Source: a virus. Taken from it: DNA of 64,000 nucleotides. Below, one piece after another: positions 1,494 to 24,429 of this stretch (position 1 is the stretch's first letter; every line of letters begins with the position of its first letter). The notes below the pieces were generated by a model. It was not told the DNA's origin. It searched no databases and saw only the letters and a list, made by a program, of their open reading frames with translations. The stretch lies in the IMG/VR virus record IMGVR_UViG_3300020215_000052, positions 753 to 64,752 of that record; one strand, given 5' to 3'. The position numbers and the translations under genes were made by a program.

Positions 1494-2062
1494 GCCGGCA
1501 CTTCACCCCAGACTGGGTTACACCTCCCGGGGACACGATCCGGGACCTGCTGGCCGAGCGCGGCTGGACGGTCGCCGAGTTCGCCAGCCGAATGGGTCTG
1601 GACGAGGCAGCGTGCGGTGGGCTCCTGGGCGGGCGGGAGCGAATCACGCTCCGGACGGCCCGGCTTCTCGCCTCGACCCTCGGGGCATCGGTCGCTTTCT
1701 GGGTGACGAGGGATGCCCAGTACCTCTCCGACCGGGAGAGGCTTGACTTGCACGGATCAAGTACTCACGTCGGTTGCCGCTCACGGCTACCGACGGCTGA
1801 GGACAAGGGGGAGCGACATGCAGCACAAGTGCCACGCCTACGACTGCCAGACCCCGGTCCCGCCCCGCATGTGGGGCTGCCGGAAGCACTGGGCCATGGT
1901 CCCGAAGCACCTCCAGCGGTTGCTCTGGTCGGTCTACCGAGAAGGGCAGGAGGCGCGGAAGGACGCCACCACCGATTACAGGCTGGTGGCTGGCGCTGTC
2001 CGAAACGCTGTTGCAGCTGCAGAGGGGCGCATCACCTGGGAGCGGGCACAGACCGGGGTTGA
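1490..2062 (+). CDS. HigA-like XRE HTH protein (domain in the first ~85 aa; C-terminal tail overlaps the next gene)
   Basis: PDWVTPPGDTIRDLLAERGWTVAEFASRMG...RITLRTARLLASTLGASVAFW matches the HigA antidote pattern. Confidence 0.75.
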   Translation: MSRHFTPDWVTPPGDTIRDLLAERGWTVAEFASRMGLDEAACGGLLGGRERITLRTARLLASTLGASVAFWVTRDAQYLSDRERLDLHGSSTHVGCRSRLPTAEDKGERHAAQVPRLRLPDPGPAPHVGLPEALGHGPEAPPAVALVGLPRRAGGAEGRHHRLQAGGWRCPKRCCSCRGAHHLGAGTDRG

Positions 2063-2123
2063 CCGCATGGCCGCATCTGTTGGCTTGCCCACGATCGGGC
2101 TGCAACCGGAGGGCATCCGGTGA
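1818..2123 (+). CDS. hypothetical Zn-binding phage protein
   Basis: HKCHAYDC...MWGCRKHW; GGAG RBS upstream. Confidence 0.65.
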   Translation: MQHKCHAYDCQTPVPPRMWGCRKHWAMVPKHLQRLLWSVYREGQEARKDATTDYRLVAGAVRNAVAAAEGRITWERAQTGVDRMAASVGLPTIGLQPEGIR

Positions 2124-2347
2124 CACTCAGCTTCACCGTGGCCCTCGGCATCGCCCTGGTCCTCCTGGTCGTCCTCCTGTGGCTGCGGCTCTCACCCGCG
2201 CACGAGGCTGGGCAGCAGGAAAGCGACGCCGGCGCCAACAGCATCCTGACCGCATCGAGCCCTCTGGCGAGGTCTCCCGTGATGCGGCGTAGCTTGGGCC
2301 GACGGCCCCGCGAGCCAGACCAGCCCGAGCCCTGCGCCGCTGGGTGA
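2120..2347 (+). CDS. small membrane protein
   Basis: N-terminal hydrophobic helix; coupled start. Confidence 0.5.
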   Translation: MTLSFTVALGIALVLLVVLLWLRLSPAHEAGQQESDAGANSILTASSPLARSPVMRRSLGRRPREPDQPEPCAAG

Positions 2348-2462
2348 CAGACGGTGGCCCGGGGCTGGCGCGGAGCGCGTGTCCCCGACTCGCTGGCAGG
2401 GGGTCATCTGCCGGCTCCAAGCCCTGACCCGGGATGGGCTCCGGATGTGGAGGTGGTGAGTT

Positions 2463-2684
2463 TTGAACATCCCCCTTGACGACCCTCGTACCAACCGGCT
2501 TTTGGCGCTCCTCGGTTCCCTCTCCCGGGAGGAGCGAGCGCGACTGGCCCTCCGGCTCCTCCGCGGAGTGGTTGGTCCTCTGGTGTTCGCGGAGGTGGGC
2601 GCCAAGGTCGTGGGTGTCGTGGACCTGCGGGAGCGACCCGCAGGGAGAAAGGGCGCCACTCGCGCACGGAGGAACCCATCGTGA
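2463..2684 (+). CDS. hypothetical protein
   Basis: ORF with RBS; stop overlaps next GTG. Confidence 0.45.
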   Translation: MNIPLDDPRTNRLLALLGSLSREERARLALRLLRGVVGPLVFAEVGAKVVGVVDLRERPAGRKGATRARRNPS

Positions 2685-3082
2685 GAGCCGAGCATCCGGA
2701 CGGCACGGTGGCCGCCGACGTCGCCCTGGTGGCCCTCCAACACGCGCTTGCCGACCTGGCCGGGGCCGAGGAGGGTACAGCCCCCCTGGAGAGCCTGGCG
2801 CTCCTGCGGGAGGAGCTGCGCCGACTGCGGGCGCTGCTGGAGTGGCCGAGCCGAGCGGAGCCGCCTCAGCCGGAGGAAGTGGCGCGGGGCTTCTTGTGGT
2901 GGATGCGGAGCGGTGAGCATGGCCGCTGGTACCCGCTGCCGAGTGCTCTGGTCGTGGTGGCCGGGCAGGTGGGGACGCTTTCCCAGTCTGGAGACGCCGG
3001 GCGGTTCATCCCCCTATCGTTGTCTCGCCGAGACCGTTACCGCTGTCACGATGGGGCATGCCGGCCCGCCCCTCTCCCCTGA
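2681..3082 (+). CDS. hypothetical protein
   Basis: ORF with GGAGG RBS and helical composition. Confidence 0.5.
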   Translation: MRAEHPDGTVAADVALVALQHALADLAGAEEGTAPLESLALLREELRRLRALLEWPSRAEPPQPEEVARGFLWWMRSGEHGRWYPLPSALVVVAGQVGTLSQSGDAGRFIPLSLSRRDRYRCHDGACRPAPLP

Positions 3083-3813
3083 CCCTGCTGCTGATGAGGT
3101 GCCCCGTGGCTGCTGATGTGACCGTGACCATCCCCCTGAACCTGGCCCTCGCCGTGGAGGTGGAGCGCCTGGCAGCTCGCCGGGGGCAGTGGAAGGAGAG
3201 CAACAGGAAGAAGGCGGCCCGGGCCGCTGCTCCTCCTGCTCTGCCGTCGCATTCTGCTCCCCCCCTGCCGCCGCCCCTGGCCGCACCGGAGGCCGTCCGG
3301 GGCCTGGAGGAGGAGGCCCTGGACAACGACTGCGACGACGCCTCCCAGGTGCCGTCCGTCGCTGACGCAGAGCCGGCTGGCGGGCCTGCAACGACTGCGC
3401 CGACAACGACTGCGCCGACAACGACTGCAACGACTGCGCCGACAACGACTGCGCCGGTAGCCGAACCCGTAGCTGAGGCCCCGCCCCCGGCGCCCCTGGC
3501 GGCGACGTCACCGGCTACGCCGCAGATCACCGACCCCGCCGGCTTCCTGTCCGCCGTCCAGACCTGGTGGCGGTGCAGCGACGGGACCGTCTGGGAGACC
3601 CGGCGCGAAGCCGTTGCATGGCGCCGGGTTCACGGCGGCCTCCCCGTGGTCCACCAGCGAGCAGGGGCGGCAGTGGTCGTGCCGCTCTCCCCTCCTGTCC
3701 AGGTGGGGAGGGGTCTGCTCCGCGAGGTGAGACGGGCAGTGGAGGAGGCGGGGCCGCCGGTGCGGAGGTGGTTCCCTGGGTCGAGGCCACCGCGGGAGGG
3801 AGAGGCGGGCTGA
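3058..3813 (+). CDS. hypothetical protein with Pro/Thr-rich linker (TTAP repeats; tandem ACGACTGCGCCGACA units ~3391-3453)
   Basis: translation and visible tandem repeats. Confidence 0.55.
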   Translation: MPARPSPLTLLLMRCPVAADVTVTIPLNLALAVEVERLAARRGQWKESNRKKAARAAAPPALPSHSAPPLPPPLAAPEAVRGLEEEALDNDCDDASQVPSVADAEPAGGPATTAPTTTAPTTTATTAPTTTAPVAEPVAEAPPPAPLAATSPATPQITDPAGFLSAVQTWWRCSDGTVWETRREAVAWRRVHGGLPVVHQRAGAAVVVPLSPPVQVGRGLLREVRRAVEEAGPPVRRWFPGSRPPREGEAG

Positions 3814-3833
3814 AGCAGACGGAGGAGGCGTAA

Positions 3834-4682
3834 GTGGAAGTGGACGCGTGCCAGCGTTGGCGGGAGCGGAGGGAGACCTACAGACCGGCTGGGGAGCCGA
3901 TCGACCCTCGTCGGTATGGGGTCGAGGTGGCCCTGGAGGGGGAGGCGAAGCCCTTCTGTCGCCGGCATCATTACTCCGGCTCTTGGCCCGCCACCCGGCT
4001 GGCCGTCGGCCTCTACCGGGCCCGGCGGTGGATCACGCCCGAGCTCGTTGGCGTGGCCGCGTTCTCGGTCCCCATGCAGCCAGCCGCCATCCCCCGGTGG
4101 ACCGGCCAGCCTGCAGATGCCGGGGTTGAGCTGGGCCGGCTCGTCCTCCTGGACGAGGTGGAGGCGAATGGCGAGAGCTTCTTCATTGCTCGCGCCCTCC
4201 GCCTGCTCGCCCAGGAGCTCCCCGAGGTCCGTGCCGTGCTTTCCTACTCGGACCCGATGCGGCGGACCACCGACGAGGGCCACATCGTCATGCCCGGGCA
4301 CGTTGGGGGCGTCTACCAGGCGCTCTCCGCCCGCCACGTGGGCCGGTCAGCCTCTCGCTTTCTCCTGATGGACCGGTGGGGCCGGGTCGTGAGCGAACGG
4401 GCCCTATCCAAGATCCGGCTGGAGGAGCGGGGCCATGCCTACGCGTATCAGCAGTTGCTCAGGGCCGGAGCCCCGCCCCGCCGCCCCTTCGAGGACGGTG
4501 CAGTCTACGTGGCCCGGGCCCTGGCGGAGGGGCCTTTCAGGCGCGTGAAGCACCCTGGGAACCTGGCGTACATCCTTGGGGTTGGCGGCCCGGCACAGCG
4601 TCGACAGGTCCTGGCCGGGGCTCCTGAGGGGCTCCCCTACCCCAAGTTCCTGACCGCCCCGCCGGACCACCTTGCGGCCTGA
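3834..4682 (+). CDS. Mom-like (GNAT-fold) DNA adenine modification protein
   Basis: RRHHYSGS, GVAAFS, VELGRLVL, ESFFIARALRLL, VLSYSDP, GHVGGVYQA motifs typical of Mom/XF1762-like proteins. Confidence 0.75.
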   Translation: MEVDACQRWRERRETYRPAGEPIDPRRYGVEVALEGEAKPFCRRHHYSGSWPATRLAVGLYRARRWITPELVGVAAFSVPMQPAAIPRWTGQPADAGVELGRLVLLDEVEANGESFFIARALRLLAQELPEVRAVLSYSDPMRRTTDEGHIVMPGHVGGVYQALSARHVGRSASRFLLMDRWGRVVSERALSKIRLEERGHAYAYQQLLRAGAPPRRPFEDGAVYVARALAEGPFRRVKHPGNLAYILGVGGPAQRRQVLAGAPEGLPYPKFLTAPPDHLAA

Positions 4683-20737: not shown

Positions 20738-21736
20738 ATGTCCGGACCTGGCTGGCCAGAAGCGGATGATGGGGAACCACACGCCTGTCTGGGGGTCACG
20801 GTGGCAATCAAAGAAGTTGAGCAGGAGGGCGCCCGTGCGGACGCACTGGGGCGACTCATCCCGGACGTGGAGGAGTATCTGAGGGTACACCGGCTCTCGT
20901 GGGCGGTCACGACGGCCCGGACCGCTGGGATCATCCTCCGGCGGGTGGCCCGTGATCTGGTACAGGCGGACCCCTCGCTGGAGGGGTGGAGCGGGGTGAC
21001 CACCGGTCACCTGGTCGAGTGGCTGGAGAGCAGGAAGCTGAGCCCCTCGACCACGCGGGCATACGTAGAGCGACTGCAACGCCTCTTCGCGTGGCTGATG
21101 GTGACGGGTCGGGTGGAGACCAACCCCGCAGCCGCCCTGGAGGGGCCCCGGATACCACAGTCGCTTCCGCGGGCCCTCTCAGCCGACGAGGTGAGGCGGC
21201 TCCTCAACGCCCCGGACACCTCGACGCCCAGAGGCATCCGGGACCGGGCCATCCTGGAGGTGGCGCTCTCGTCCGGGGTGCGGGTCTCGGAGCTCGTGGC
21301 GTTGAGCATTGGGGATGTGGATCTCTCCCAGGCCCCGGCCACCGTGCTCGTCCGCCACGGCAAGGGGGCCCAGGACAGGGTGACCTACCTGGACGCCGAG
21401 GCGGTCAGGTGGGTCCGAAGGTGGCTGGTCATCCGCGAGCGGGGGGATGCCCCTCCCCAGTCGGACGCCCTCCTTGGGGACGTTGCGACGGGCCGCCGGC
21501 TTACGGACAAGGCGGTCCAGGACCTTGTCCCAAGGTACGGGAGGATGGCCGGGATCGCGGGCAGGGTGACGCCCCACGACCTGCGGCACACCATGGCTAC
21601 CCGCCTCGTGCTGGTCGGGATGCCCCTCCCGGCCATCCAGGCGCTGCTGGGCCACCGCACCCTCGCGGCGACCCAAATATACGTGAAGCTTACGGCCCTC
21701 CAGGTGAGGGCGGAGTTCGGCAAGCACTCCAGATAG
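20738..21736 (+). CDS. tyrosine recombinase (XerC/D-like integrase family)
   Basis: RDRAILE...GVRVSEL, HGKG..DR, HDLRHTMAT, LLGHRTLAATQIY. Confidence 0.92.
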   Translation: MSGPGWPEADDGEPHACLGVTVAIKEVEQEGARADALGRLIPDVEEYLRVHRLSWAVTTARTAGIILRRVARDLVQADPSLEGWSGVTTGHLVEWLESRKLSPSTTRAYVERLQRLFAWLMVTGRVETNPAAALEGPRIPQSLPRALSADEVRRLLNAPDTSTPRGIRDRAILEVALSSGVRVSELVALSIGDVDLSQAPATVLVRHGKGAQDRVTYLDAEAVRWVRRWLVIRERGDAPPQSDALLGDVATGRRLTDKAVQDLVPRYGRMAGIAGRVTPHDLRHTMATRLVLVGMPLPAIQALLGHRTLAATQIYVKLTALQVRAEFGKHSR

Positions 21737-21748
21737 GGGGGCGCGGAC

Positions 21749-21928
21749 GTGGAAGAGCTGATGCGGAGCCTGGAGCGGCTCCTGGCGGAGACGCGGGCCG
21801 AGCGGGACCTCTGCCAGGACCCGGTCTCGGCCCACGACCTGAGCACGGCAGCGGACGTGCTCGCGAGGGCTCTTAAGCGGGTGGAGGAGATCGCGGGGGT
21901 TGGGCGGAAGCGGAGAGCGGGGCGGTGA
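21749..21928 (+). CDS. small helical hypothetical protein
   Basis: read by eye: VEELMRSLERLLAETRAERDLCQD... Confidence 0.45.
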   Translation: MEELMRSLERLLAETRAERDLCQDPVSAHDLSTAADVLARALKRVEEIAGVGRKRRAGR

Positions 21929-21944
21929 ACTCTTGGAGGGATAG

Positions 21945-23072
21945 ATGTGGCTGTACATCCCATCAACGTGCTTGAGGTCTGCTCCGGCTACGGAGGCCTC
22001 GGCCTCGCCCTTGACGTGGCATTGGGAGGCGCTCGCACGGTCTGCCACGTTGAGAGGGAAGCATTCGCTGCCGCGACGTTGGCAAGGCGCATGGCGGAAG
22101 GCACCTTGGATGAGGCACCTATCTGGTCTGACCTGCTCACCTTCGACGGCAGGCCGTGGCGTGGAGTCGTGGGTGGAATCGCTTCGGGCCTCCCCTGCCA
22201 GCCCTATTCCACGTCCGGGAAGCGATTGGGGCATGCCGACGAGCGAGCCATCTGGCCGCACTTCTGCCGGGTCGTTGAGGAAGTCCAGCCTCAGTTCATC
22301 TTCCTTGAGAACGTCCCAAGGTTCCTTGCCTTTTTCGAGCCGGTCGCGCTCCGACTGGAGTGGCTGGGTTACCGAGTCGAAACGCCTCTCGTCCTCGGTG
22401 CGGACGATGTTGGCGCGAGCCACAAGCGCAAGCGCGTCTTCATCCTGGCACACACCGGATGCAACGGGCGCAGCGGTCAACTGGCCGACGCCGACCGTCT
22501 GCGGCAACGACAATCGCAAGGGGGCAAGCACAACGAGCGGGGATGGACTCCAGACGGCGGTGAAGATCTGGCCGACCCCGTGCGCATCGGACGGCAAGCG
22601 GGGCGACCGCACGGAGCACTGCGCGCAGGACCCGAGAGCGGGCATGGACCTGATGACTGCTGCCATGAACTTCCAGAGACCGACTCCAGTGACAGGTGGC
22701 GACCGTGGACCGACGGAGACTTCCCCGGAGATGTGGGCGACGCCGACAGCCAGGGATGGGAAGGACGGCACAGCGGCCTTTGCCGAGGTGGACACGAATT
22801 CGCTTCTTGGGAGAGAGGCGCCCCGCTGGGCCTTTTCGCATGGGGACCTGGTGACCGACGGTGGGCGGATCCACCCGCCTCAGTCGATCCGCCTCAACCC
22901 GCGCTTCGCAGAGTGGCTGATGGGTCTGCCCCTTGGATGGACCGATGCCGAGCTGTCGGCAATGGAGTGGTGCCACTGGCAGCGGCTATTTCGTTCAGAA
23001 TACTCGCGGCTCGTGCGGGTCTTGTCGAACTCTGATCTGGTCAGCGCGGTACGACGGGAGGGCGCAGCATGA
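21945..23072 (+). CDS. overlapping alternative-frame polypeptide carrying WPTP repeats and C5-MTase motif IX (beta-like subunit)
   Basis: 375 codons open; RLNPRFAEWLMGLPLGWTD; stop overlaps the next gene's ATG. Confidence 0.65.
   Translation: MWLYIPSTCLRSAPATEASASPLTWHWEALARSATLRGKHSLPRRWQGAWRKAPWMRHLSGLTCSPSTAGRGVESWVESLRASPASPIPRPGSDWGMPTSEPSGRTSAGSLRKSSLSSSSLRTSQGSLPFSSRSRSDWSGWVTESKRLSSSVRTMLARATSASASSSWHTPDATGAAVNWPTPTVCGNDNRKGASTTSGDGLQTAVKIWPTPCASDGKRGDRTEHCAQDPRAGMDLMTAAMNFQRPTPVTGGDRGPTETSPEMWATPTARDGKDGTAAFAEVDTNSLLGREAPRWAFSHGDLVTDGGRIHPPQSIRLNPRFAEWLMGLPLGWTDAELSAMEWCHWQRLFRSEYSRLVRVLSNSDLVSAVRREGAA
21947..23035 (+). CDS. DNA (cytosine-5) methyltransferase, alpha frame (motifs I, IV, VI, VIII, X)
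   Basis: VCSGYGG (I), GLPCQPYS (IV), LENVP (VI), HKRKRVF (VIII), RCRAVGNGVVP (X). Confidence 0.9.
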   Translation: MAVHPINVLEVCSGYGGLGLALDVALGGARTVCHVEREAFAAATLARRMAEGTLDEAPIWSDLLTFDGRPWRGVVGGIASGLPCQPYSTSGKRLGHADERAIWPHFCRVVEEVQPQFIFLENVPRFLAFFEPVALRLEWLGYRVETPLVLGADDVGASHKRKRVFILAHTGCNGRSGQLADADRLRQRQSQGGKHNERGWTPDGGEDLADPVRIGRQAGRPHGALRAGPESGHGPDDCCHELPETDSSDRWRPWTDGDFPGDVGDADSQGWEGRHSGLCRGGHEFASWERGAPLGLFAWGPGDRRWADPPASVDPPQPALRRVADGSAPWMDRCRAVGNGVVPLAAAISFRILAARAGLVEL

Positions 23073-23650
23073 AACAGAAACCATGGTGGTGGAGGCGTCC
23101 CATGCTGCGTGACCTCCTGTTCCGTCTGAGCGACGGCCTGCCCTGCCGGGTCATCCACCAGGTCCAGGGCACGCCGTACCTGGAACGCTACCACGTGGCC
23201 AGCGCGGGCCAGGTCAACGTGTACCTGCACCGGTTCGTCGGCGACGACGCCCCAGGCGTGCTCCACGATCACCCCTGGCCGCTCGCCCTGAGCCTCATCC
23301 TCTGGGGCGCGTACCGGGAGGAGCGGCTGGAGCAGATCCACCATGCCGTCACCCGATGGAGGGTACTGGGGCCGGGGCGTCTCAACCTCATCCGAGGGAA
23401 CGACCATCACCGTGTCGAGTTGGTCTCCCCCGAGGTCTGGACGCTCTTTGTCACCCTCGGCAAGACCAAGGGGTGGGGGTTCCTGACCGGGTTCGGAGGG
23501 GCGACCATCCACACCCCGTGGAGGACCTTCCTGGGGGAGGGTGGGGCCGCCACGCATGATGGAGCAGAGCATGGGGAATGGCGGTGGTGGTTGCGAGCGC
23601 CCCTTGGCCGGGACGCAGATGGCAGGGTTGAAGGGGCGGTGGCCCCATGA
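23069..23650 (+). CDS. cupin-like phage protein
   Basis: YLHRF..DD..GVLHDHPW...HHRVEL...WTLF. Confidence 0.6.
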   Translation: MKQKPWWWRRPMLRDLLFRLSDGLPCRVIHQVQGTPYLERYHVASAGQVNVYLHRFVGDDAPGVLHDHPWPLALSLILWGAYREERLEQIHHAVTRWRVLGPGRLNLIRGNDHHRVELVSPEVWTLFVTLGKTKGWGFLTGFGGATIHTPWRTFLGEGGAATHDGAEHGEWRWWLRAPLGRDADGRVEGAVAP

Positions 23651-24429
23651 TGCCCTACGCCAACGGCATGCGTCATGCTGTCCCCGACGCCCTGCGGTCC
23701 CCGGGTGACGCCTACATCACAGAGGGGTGGGTCGTGGCCCACTGGCTACGTCAGACCCTCTATCAGCCGCCGCCCGAGCTGCTGGTCTGGGATCCTGCCG
23801 CGTGCGGGGTTGCAGGCTGGGCCATCGGGAGAGCGCTGGGCCTCGCCTGGGATCGCCCCTTCCGGCTCTCGGACATCCGGCCTCAGGGGCCCGGGGTGGA
23901 GGTGGAGTCCTTCCCCACGGACGGCTCGCCAGCTCCGCGCCCGGAGCACGATGGGCCGGTTCTCCTGGCCACGAACCCTCCGTTCTCCGACCTATCCGCA
24001 TGGATCGTGGCGTGGCGGAGGTCCGCCCGGCTGGGCGACGCGATGCTCCTCGTCAGCGACTCGGGGGCGCTCACGACGGCGGAACCCCGCGCCTATGGGA
24101 TGGCCGAGCGGGTCCAGCCCTGCAAGCGTATGGCGTTCGGCCTCACCTCTGACGACGCAGACCACCTCCGGAGGCTCGTGGCCTCTGGGGAGAGAGCTCC
24201 TCAGCCTATCTCTACGGGAAACCACAAGACCGGCCCAACCGGCGAGGGGATGCCCAGCACGGGCAAGGCACACTGCTTGGGTCTCTGGACCTGGCCGCCG
24301 TCGCACTGGAGCGGATCACGAGAGGTCTGCGAGCCGGTCATTCCGGCGGATCTCTGGATGGGCGACCTGTTGATGCAGCGGTGCGCCGAGGCCGTCGGGC
24401 TGGTAGCGGCGAAGCAGGAGGCGGCATGA
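23647..24429 (+). CDS. putative amino (N6-adenine) DNA methyltransferase-like protein
   Basis: VWDPAACG (motif I-like) and LATNPPF (motif IV). Confidence 0.55.
   Translation: MMPYANGMRHAVPDALRSPGDAYITEGWVVAHWLRQTLYQPPPELLVWDPAACGVAGWAIGRALGLAWDRPFRLSDIRPQGPGVEVESFPTDGSPAPRPEHDGPVLLATNPPFSDLSAWIVAWRRSARLGDAMLLVSDSGALTTAEPRAYGMAERVQPCKRMAFGLTSDDADHLRRLVASGERAPQPISTGNHKTGPTGEGMPSTGKAHCLGLWTWPPSHWSGSREVCEPVIPADLWMGDLLMQRCAEAVGLVAAKQEAA

Follow-up and report, generated by a model that had tools for sequence, protein, structure and literature searches.

Does a stretch of phage DNA of about 1.1 kb encode one protein or two? The question is raised by positions 21945-23072 of a 64,000-nt piece of viral DNA (the whole of which is called the window here) that corresponds to positions 753-64,752 of the IMG/VR virus record IMGVR_UViG_3300020215_000052 and has a GC content of ~67%. 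Two same-strand reading frames, termed A and B below, are open across the locus. Same-strand genes that overlap fully over more than 1 kb are a great rarity among bacteria and phages, and the rules of annotation pipelines exclude them. To our knowledge, the alternative-frame two-subunit design has so far been proven for one E. coli enzyme. The original prediction for the locus was a two-subunit phage methyltransferase, a reading that the comparative data presented here favor. As judged by sequence comparison and structure modeling, positions 21945-23072 probably encode the two subunits of a C5 cytosine DNA methyltransferase, a heterodimer, in same-strand frames that overlap fully, and we put the probability of this reading at about 0.75.

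Two Open Reading Frames behind One Shine-Dalgarno-like Element

The start region, the two ORFs, and the gene that follows them are located as listed, with coordinates referring to the window.

21935-21940, plus strand: Shine-Dalgarno (SD)-like element GGAGGG, putatively serving both start codons (direct reading)
21945-23072, plus strand: ORF of frame B, 375 aa from an ATG; putative recognition (small-domain) subunit whose N-terminal half is filler
21947-23035, plus strand: ORF of frame A, 362 aa from a GTG; putative catalytic (large-domain) subunit
23069-23650, plus strand: cupin-like next gene, phrog_4786 (named 'cysteine dioxygenase'); its ATG overlaps the TGA of frame B

Direct reading of the DNA confirmed that a single ribosome-binding site, GGAGGG, precedes the ATG at 21945 and the out-of-frame GTG at 21947, and that these two codons overlap as ATGTG. 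Both frames then continue for about 1.1 kb without a stop codon (375 aa in B, 362 aa in A), as the prediction had it, until frame A is terminated by the TGA at 23033-23035 and frame B by the TGA at 23070-23072. The third sense frame has 16 stops across the same span. The predicted overlap between the TGA of frame B and the ATG of the next ORF was likewise present, in the form of ATGA at 23069-23072; an overlap of the same kind is found in the homologous locus L051.

The locus is preceded by a tyrosine integrase gene (20738-21736, PF00589) and a 59-aa ORF. On its 3' side the methyltransferase is followed by the cupin-like gene and then by a 260-aa ORF without a family match (together 23069-24429), with overlapping stop and start codons. 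The minus strand carries a 538-aa antisense ORF across the locus (21179-22795) that has no family support and shows how easily long spurious ORFs arise at such a GC content.

Methyltransferase Motifs Are Divided between the Two Frames

In the following list, codon positions in the two frames are denoted A1-A3 and B1-B3; A1 coincides with B3, and A3 with B2.

21977-22450, plus strand: frame A selected block, motifs I-VIII; A more conserved than B, substitutions mostly at A3
21980-21997, plus strand: motif I (C12-S-G-Y-G-G17), frame A; G14 and G16 invariant in 28 sequences
22193-22201, plus strand: motif IV PCQ, A residues 83-85; P83, C84, and Q85 invariant
22307-22315, plus strand: motif VI ENV, A residues 121-123; E121 and N122 invariant, V123 nearly so
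22427-22435, plus strand: motif VIII RKR, A residues 161-163; R161 and R163 invariant
22454-22822, plus strand: frame A filler, Gly/Arg/Asp-rich, ~120 codons; open, yet unconserved as protein
22823-22912, plus strand: selected block of frame A (residues 293-322), FAxGP..W..P..PA; W306 invariant
22958-22975, plus strand: motif X GNGVVP, A residues 338-343; the DNA is still within ORF B
21945-22469, plus strand: frame B filler, ~175 codons; open, yet unconserved as protein
22479-22760, plus strand: frame B selected block with four WPTP-type modules, putative target-recognition region; B more conserved than A, substitutions at B3
22479, plus strand: module WPTP, frame B
22566, plus strand: module WPTP, frame B
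22677, plus strand: module RPTP, frame B
22731, plus strand: module WATP, frame B
22887-22943, plus strand: motif IX-like segment of frame B (RLNPRFAEWLMG.. / RLNPRFAEWLMGLPLGWTD)

Frame A matches the Pfam family PF00145 over residues 7-169 only (E 6e-25), which corresponds to profile positions 2-161 of 324, and matches phrog_363 over residues 4-354. Invariance of its motifs was judged in an alignment of 28 sequences (alignment A1). The C5-methyltransferase motifs I, IV, VI, and VIII are all found in frame A, as is motif X, of which G338 is invariant and N339 and G340 are nearly so. Motif IX is absent from frame A, and a motif IX-like segment occurs only in frame B. The division of motifs stated in the original prediction was therefore seen in full, and neither chain holds motifs I-VIII, IX, and X together, as the IX-like segment lies in B and motif X in A. 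The filler between motif VIII and the FAxGP block of frame A differs in length among loci and has a column conservation of 0.16-0.41.

In frame B the four W-x-T-P-type repeats and the motif IX-like segment lie where they had been predicted. Residues L317, N318, L325, M326, and P329 of the motif IX-like segment are invariant. No Pfam family was found for frame B, and its residues 79-337 match PHROG 1008 'DNA methyltransferase' (phrog_1008). With B residues 175-345 as the query, a database search returned 666 proteins, mostly without a Pfam family and named 'hypothetical'. Many of these relatives start with MSWLFSQALVAEY, the sequence that motif I (NELALFAGAGGG) gives when read in the +1 frame, indicating that they are frame B ORFs preferred by gene callers.

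The Missing Stop Codons Are Not Due to Chance

The +1 frame of the ordinary genes in the window (49 genes) contains, on average, 2.42 stops per 100 codons and is free of stops in none of the 49. For a gene of the length of frame A or B ~9 stops are expected, and 0 were observed. The same point was addressed at 14 loci with synonymous-codon shuffles, which keep each protein and its codon usage. For frame B over the A-coded part, the probability of zero stops ranged from 0.007 to 0.54 per locus, and for frame A over the B-coded part it ranged from <0.001 to 0.10; zero stops were observed in 14 of 14 loci in both cases. Within the frame B filler, 0.5-3 stops were expected per locus and none was present in any of the 14. 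When the B-coded middle of the window itself was shuffled, frame A stayed open in 0.6% of trials. Multiplied over 11 non-redundant loci, the probabilities come by our calculation to ~1e-11 for frame B and ~1e-22 for frame A; at such divergences, synonymous choices are in effect independent. Selection keeps both frames open, and chance is no explanation for the missing stops.

Measures of base composition and silent-site identity were less informative. GC3 by frame is suggestive, being too weak at 67% GC for frame assignment. Identity at four-fold sites in the N region of frame A was 0.42, compared with 0.29 expected, a difference computed without a matched control gene set. This excess fits extra constraint, and we give it little weight, as site-specific stop avoidance may inflate it. 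Family-wide, the four-fold third positions of frame A (21977-22450) are, again without a control gene set, only ~65% G+C, which is plausibly a cost of the second frame.

The Two-frame Layout Is Conserved in Related Phages

Relatives of the locus were drawn from IMG/VR, from contigs encoding database hits, from GenBank phages, and from bacterial genomes. The prediction had made the fate of frame B in homologues decisive, and here it was borne out; the two-frame layout is kept in essentially all of ~30 related phage and prophage loci, which span 55-70% GC, and motif conservation alternates between the frames. In 13 close relatives, which share 38-59% identity with the N-terminal part of A, neither frame contains a stop over its whole length. 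In nine distant loci, whose translations were read, the +1 frame has 0-2 stops, all of them upstream of the start of B. The +2 (third) frame of the homologous loci has 10-18 stops, and frame A itself is uninterrupted in all of these homologues. The layout is also present in L050, in L051, in a Hydrogenedentales genome, and in Burkholderia phage phi1026b and Synechococcus phage Yong-M2-251. At the low end of the GC range, in L053 (55% GC), frame A is open through the B-coded middle and frame B starts ~65 codons into A. A pseudogene created by sequencing error was considered and ruled out, the layout recurring in independent assemblies and in cultured phages.

In most loci the start of B (mostly ATG) lies 2-5 nt from the start of A (mostly GTG), often directly after an in-frame stop of B. 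An SD-like element is typically found 4-10 nt 5' of the paired starts in most homologous loci. The pair recurs in particular forms. One is ATGTGG, the form seen in the window, in which the ATG of B is followed 2 nt on by the GTG of A. Another is GTGAATG, in which the GTG of A is followed 4 nt on by the ATG of B and an in-frame TGA of B stands immediately 5' of that ATG. The third is ATGACATGG. The alignment consensus has no conserved internal Met in B ahead of the first repeat. By analogy with this geometry, B would be initiated in the window at 21945 via the shared SD element. The exceptions are L052 and L053, where frame B is broken near its 5' end and an internal ATG has its own SD-like element; these internal starts indicate that the filler is dispensable and that the shared start is common, not obligatory. 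The predicted use of one ribosome-binding site for both subunits thus holds for most loci, with their paired starts and single SD-like element, and fails for these two, which start B internally.

Some loci depart from the layout in the window in other ways. In L054 (phi1026b, NC_005284), positions 1902-4026, frame B runs stop-free into an annotated ParB-like gene, and B runs on in the same manner in L040 and L047. The B product of L054 could be a fusion of the recognition subunit with a ParB-like protein, or the ParB-like gene could have an ATG of its own. In L026 (2950-4100), the FAPGP block has to be read in the +1 frame and the motif IX-like segment in +2; this further change of frame is either genuine or due to misassembly. 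Seven prophage loci from Streptomyces genomes (L057-L063, ~1700-2600 of each) have a frame A that ends a few codons past motif VIII; in their +1 frame, LPTPTA-type modules are accompanied by motif IX as well as motif X (IGDGVVPQQA). Such a split is either a division like that of M.AquI or a candidate for +1 recoding.

Selection Alternates between the Frames

Column conservation in the two frames was mapped to the window. Frame A is the more conserved at 21975-22450 (motifs I-VIII), frame B at 22485-22755 (the WPTP repeats), frame A at 22815-22845 (the FAxGP..W block), frame B at ~22905 (the motif IX core), and frame A at 22935-22995 (motif X), so that the order along the gene is A, B, A, B, A.

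The periodicity of substitutions was measured by assigning the nucleotide differences in 11 related pairs to A-codon positions. In the N region the differences at A positions 1/2/3 numbered 190/98/416, with the A3 peak normally seen when frame A is coding. For the middle region the corresponding counts were 333/194/232, with the peak at A1, which is B3; this is the signature of coding in frame B. The B3 signal in the middle region was clearest in close pairs (29/8/8 for L040/L042 and 22/4/7 for L040/L047). As judged by the variability of B3 in the middle, the higher conservation of B than of A, and the homology to single-chain enzymes described below, the second ORF is selected as a protein.

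Since A3 is also B2, the many A3 changes mean that the first 175 residues of B drift freely, yet without acquiring a stop. The middle of A likewise drifts while staying open. On this comparative evidence, each frame is a set of selected parts plus filler that is merely kept open. Drifting but open filler in both frames is expected if both are translated at full length and is not expected if the ribosome hops between them.

Single-chain Relatives Contain Counterparts of Both Frames in One Protein

A few of the matches to the B segment are single-chain PF00145 proteins of metagenomic origin (P0051, P0111, and P0032). Between motifs VIII and X these carry, in frame, WPTPTVCGN.NRKGAS-type modules and an LNP.WVE.LMG segment. 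Frame B of the window aligns with residues 189-320 of P0051 (39% identity, E 3e-23), and frame A aligns with residues 1-170 and 344-371 of the same protein. Taken together, these alignments identify the second half of B as the counterpart of the small domain, made up of the variable region and motif IX, and A as the large domain. They also fit the suggestion in the original prediction that the WPTP repeats may form a recognition region, the repeats and motif IX together aligning with the VIII-X segment of a single chain. In P0051, P0111, and P0032, unlike the present locus, everything is in one frame and motifs IX and X are ~40 residues apart; in the window, motif IX lies just 5' of motif X on doubly read DNA, and the conserved residues of A that precede motif X share its nucleotides. 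Two further database proteins, P0041 and P0074, both from short contigs, follow frame A as far as motif IV or VII and then continue with B-type sequence in one frame. These could be natural fusions, indels, or assembly errors.

A structure model of the complex of A (alignment A1) with B residues 170-352 (alignment A2) gave a score of 0.87, compared with 0.00 for the best of three controls. Of 80 solved complexes, 58 reached this level, as did 2 of 110 mismatched pairs. Model runs agreed in at least 39% of contacts, with a partner pLDDT of 48-50. The predicted interface brings B residues 314-337 (motif IX) into contact with A residues 152-161 (motif VIII), 293-302 and 315-322 (the FAxGP block), and 330-348 (motif X). 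Solved single-chain C5-methyltransferases share this packing, so the score may reflect likeness to them rather than binding. Modeled alone with AlphaFold2 (120 sequences), B 170-352 had a mean pLDDT of 58 and a pTM of 0.28, and only the motif IX helix was confident (pLDDT 87). A profile search of the PDB with the B alignment found no solved-structure match, the only hits being chance matches of the filler to MS2 coat protein.

A Proposed Two-subunit Enzyme and Its Alternatives

In the enzyme that we propose, ribosomes recruited to the single Shine-Dalgarno element would initiate at either the GTG at 21947 or the ATG at 21945. Initiation at the GTG would yield A, consisting of the catalytic large domain (motifs I-VIII), a disordered filler loop, the FAxGP block, and the motif X helix. 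Initiation at the ATG would yield B, in which the filler N-terminal half is followed by a small domain of tandem WPTP modules and motif IX. A and B would then assemble, with motif IX of B packing on motifs VIII and X of A, and the assembly would restore the architecture of a single-chain enzyme. We infer that both proteins are made, that they bind one another, that both are needed, and that the repeats set the specificity. A more elaborate version is tentative: with one SD element and starts 2 nt apart, 1.1 kb would be decoded twice, the choice between GTG and ATG might set the subunit ratio, and the WPTP modules might be independent, exchangeable units of a multispecific enzyme. If this modular version is true, recognition could change as modules are acquired or lost, the sole demand on frame A being that it stay open, and the locus would belong to the longest and most widespread cases of same-strand dual coding in prokaryotic viruses.

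The case for regarding frame A as the only gene, with a long low-complexity insert, and frame B as an untranslated GC-rich open frame is that long spurious ORFs are common at 67% GC, the 538-aa ORF of the minus strand being one, and that cultured phages have frame A alone annotated (for example, gp67 of phi1026b). Such a by-product is extremely improbable, because an open +1 frame accompanies 0 of 49 ordinary window genes, the shuffle tests reject chance, and the layout holds at 55% GC. Moreover, the least constrained position in the middle region is B3, showing selection on the protein of B there, single-chain enzymes contain, in frame, a homologue of the B segment, and motif IX is missing from frame A. 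If frame B is translated, its product might still begin near the repeats, at an internal start as in M.EcoHK31I, and not at the ATG at 21945. The early frame B stops of L052 and L053, which have an internal ATG with an SD-like element, point in this direction, as does the lack of conservation of the N-terminal half of B as a protein; the β chain of M.EcoHK31I is nested and able to use internal Met codons (PMC2836561). However, a start 150 codons later leaves unexplained the paired start and the stop-free B of the window and most homologues, and no internal Met is conserved in the alignment before the first repeat. We therefore regard an internal start in the window as unlikely.

The original prediction also allowed for a programmed frameshift that makes a hybrid chain. 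Here the ribosome would read A, shift +1 into B after motif VIII, and shift -1 back to A after motif IX, producing a single canonical methyltransferase. A chain made of A 1-170, B 178-333, and A 334-362 would carry its motifs in the order found in P0051 and similar single-chain relatives, which show that it would be a sensible enzyme; one-frame proteins exist in the database (P0041 and P0074), and frame A of the Streptomyces loci stops directly past motif VIII. The Streptomyces relatives count against the two-subunit reading in that they show the wider family to include recoding or other kinds of split. On the other hand, the gene contains no X_XXY_YYZ heptamer, no homopolymer longer than 5 nt, and no frame A stop near 22450, and two efficient shifts in opposite directions would be required. 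The conserved frame A block FAxGP..W..P.LAP falls within the stretch that would be read in frame B and so would go untranslated, and the ~175 codons of B and ~120 codons of A that drift without a stop, together with the paired start of B, would have no explanation. With no slippery site, open drifting filler, and a conserved A block inside the B-read stretch, recoding is disfavored, and we consider it quite improbable for this locus.

Relation to Known Methyltransferases

Two frames of one gene, each of them selected in alternating blocks, are found in phages whose hosts include Burkholderia, Synechococcus, and Hydrogenedentales as well as many uncultured organisms. We found no account of this phage layout in the literature beyond M.EcoHK31I and M.AquI, and two papers on Burkholderia phages mention only ordinary methylases. 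If the two-subunit reading holds, a large phage family of 'DNA methyltransferase' and 'hypothetical protein' entries is half-annotated, and the design of M.EcoHK31I, hitherto a one-off, would be a common phage strategy. The loci would then also offer a natural system for the co-evolution of two proteins on the same nucleotides and for the way in which paired start codons could set a subunit ratio. There is a bearing on predicted anti-restriction methylation specificity in phages as well, since it is in the unannotated frame that the recognition part would be found.

The closest precedent is M.EcoHK31I of E. coli, which recognizes YGGCCR (Lee, Kam and Shaw 1995). As described in two sources (PMC2836561, PMC3404938), its α chain holds motifs I-VIII, motif X, and what is predicted to be the target-recognition domain (TRD), its β chain holds motif IX and comes from a different reading frame within the α gene, and the enzyme requires both chains. 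The original prediction cited this enzyme as a case of motif IX supplied from an alternative-frame β polypeptide, in agreement with those descriptions. The present locus shares with it the placement of motifs I-VIII and X in one frame, here A, and of motif IX in an alternative-frame ORF on the same DNA. The layouts differ in that the β chain of M.EcoHK31I is small and nested and the TRD is predicted to lie in α, whereas B (375 aa) is co-extensive with A (362 aa), and it is in frame B that the repeats are under selection. The start codon of B also lies 2 nt from that of A, behind the same SD element, and B carries the whole repeat region together with motif IX, again unlike M.EcoHK31I.

M.AquI (CYCGRG) is a two-subunit C5-methyltransferase with a small chain that contains motifs IX and X (PMC3404938). 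It resembles the present locus as a natural split into a catalytic chain and a chain with the variable region and C-terminal motifs. Unlike in M.AquI, motif X of the window stays in frame A, and the Streptomyces loci L057-L063 are nearer to the M.AquI split. In cultured phages, gp67 of phi1026b and the 'cytosine-specific DNA methyltransferase' of Yong-M2-251 belong to the same family and have the same two-frame layout, with only frame A annotated. The multispecific C5-methyltransferases of Bacillus phages SPR and phi3T are single chains in which short recognition modules stand in tandem between motif VIII and motif IX. The tandem modules of B resemble this arrangement, with the difference that the SPR and phi3T enzymes keep it within one chain.
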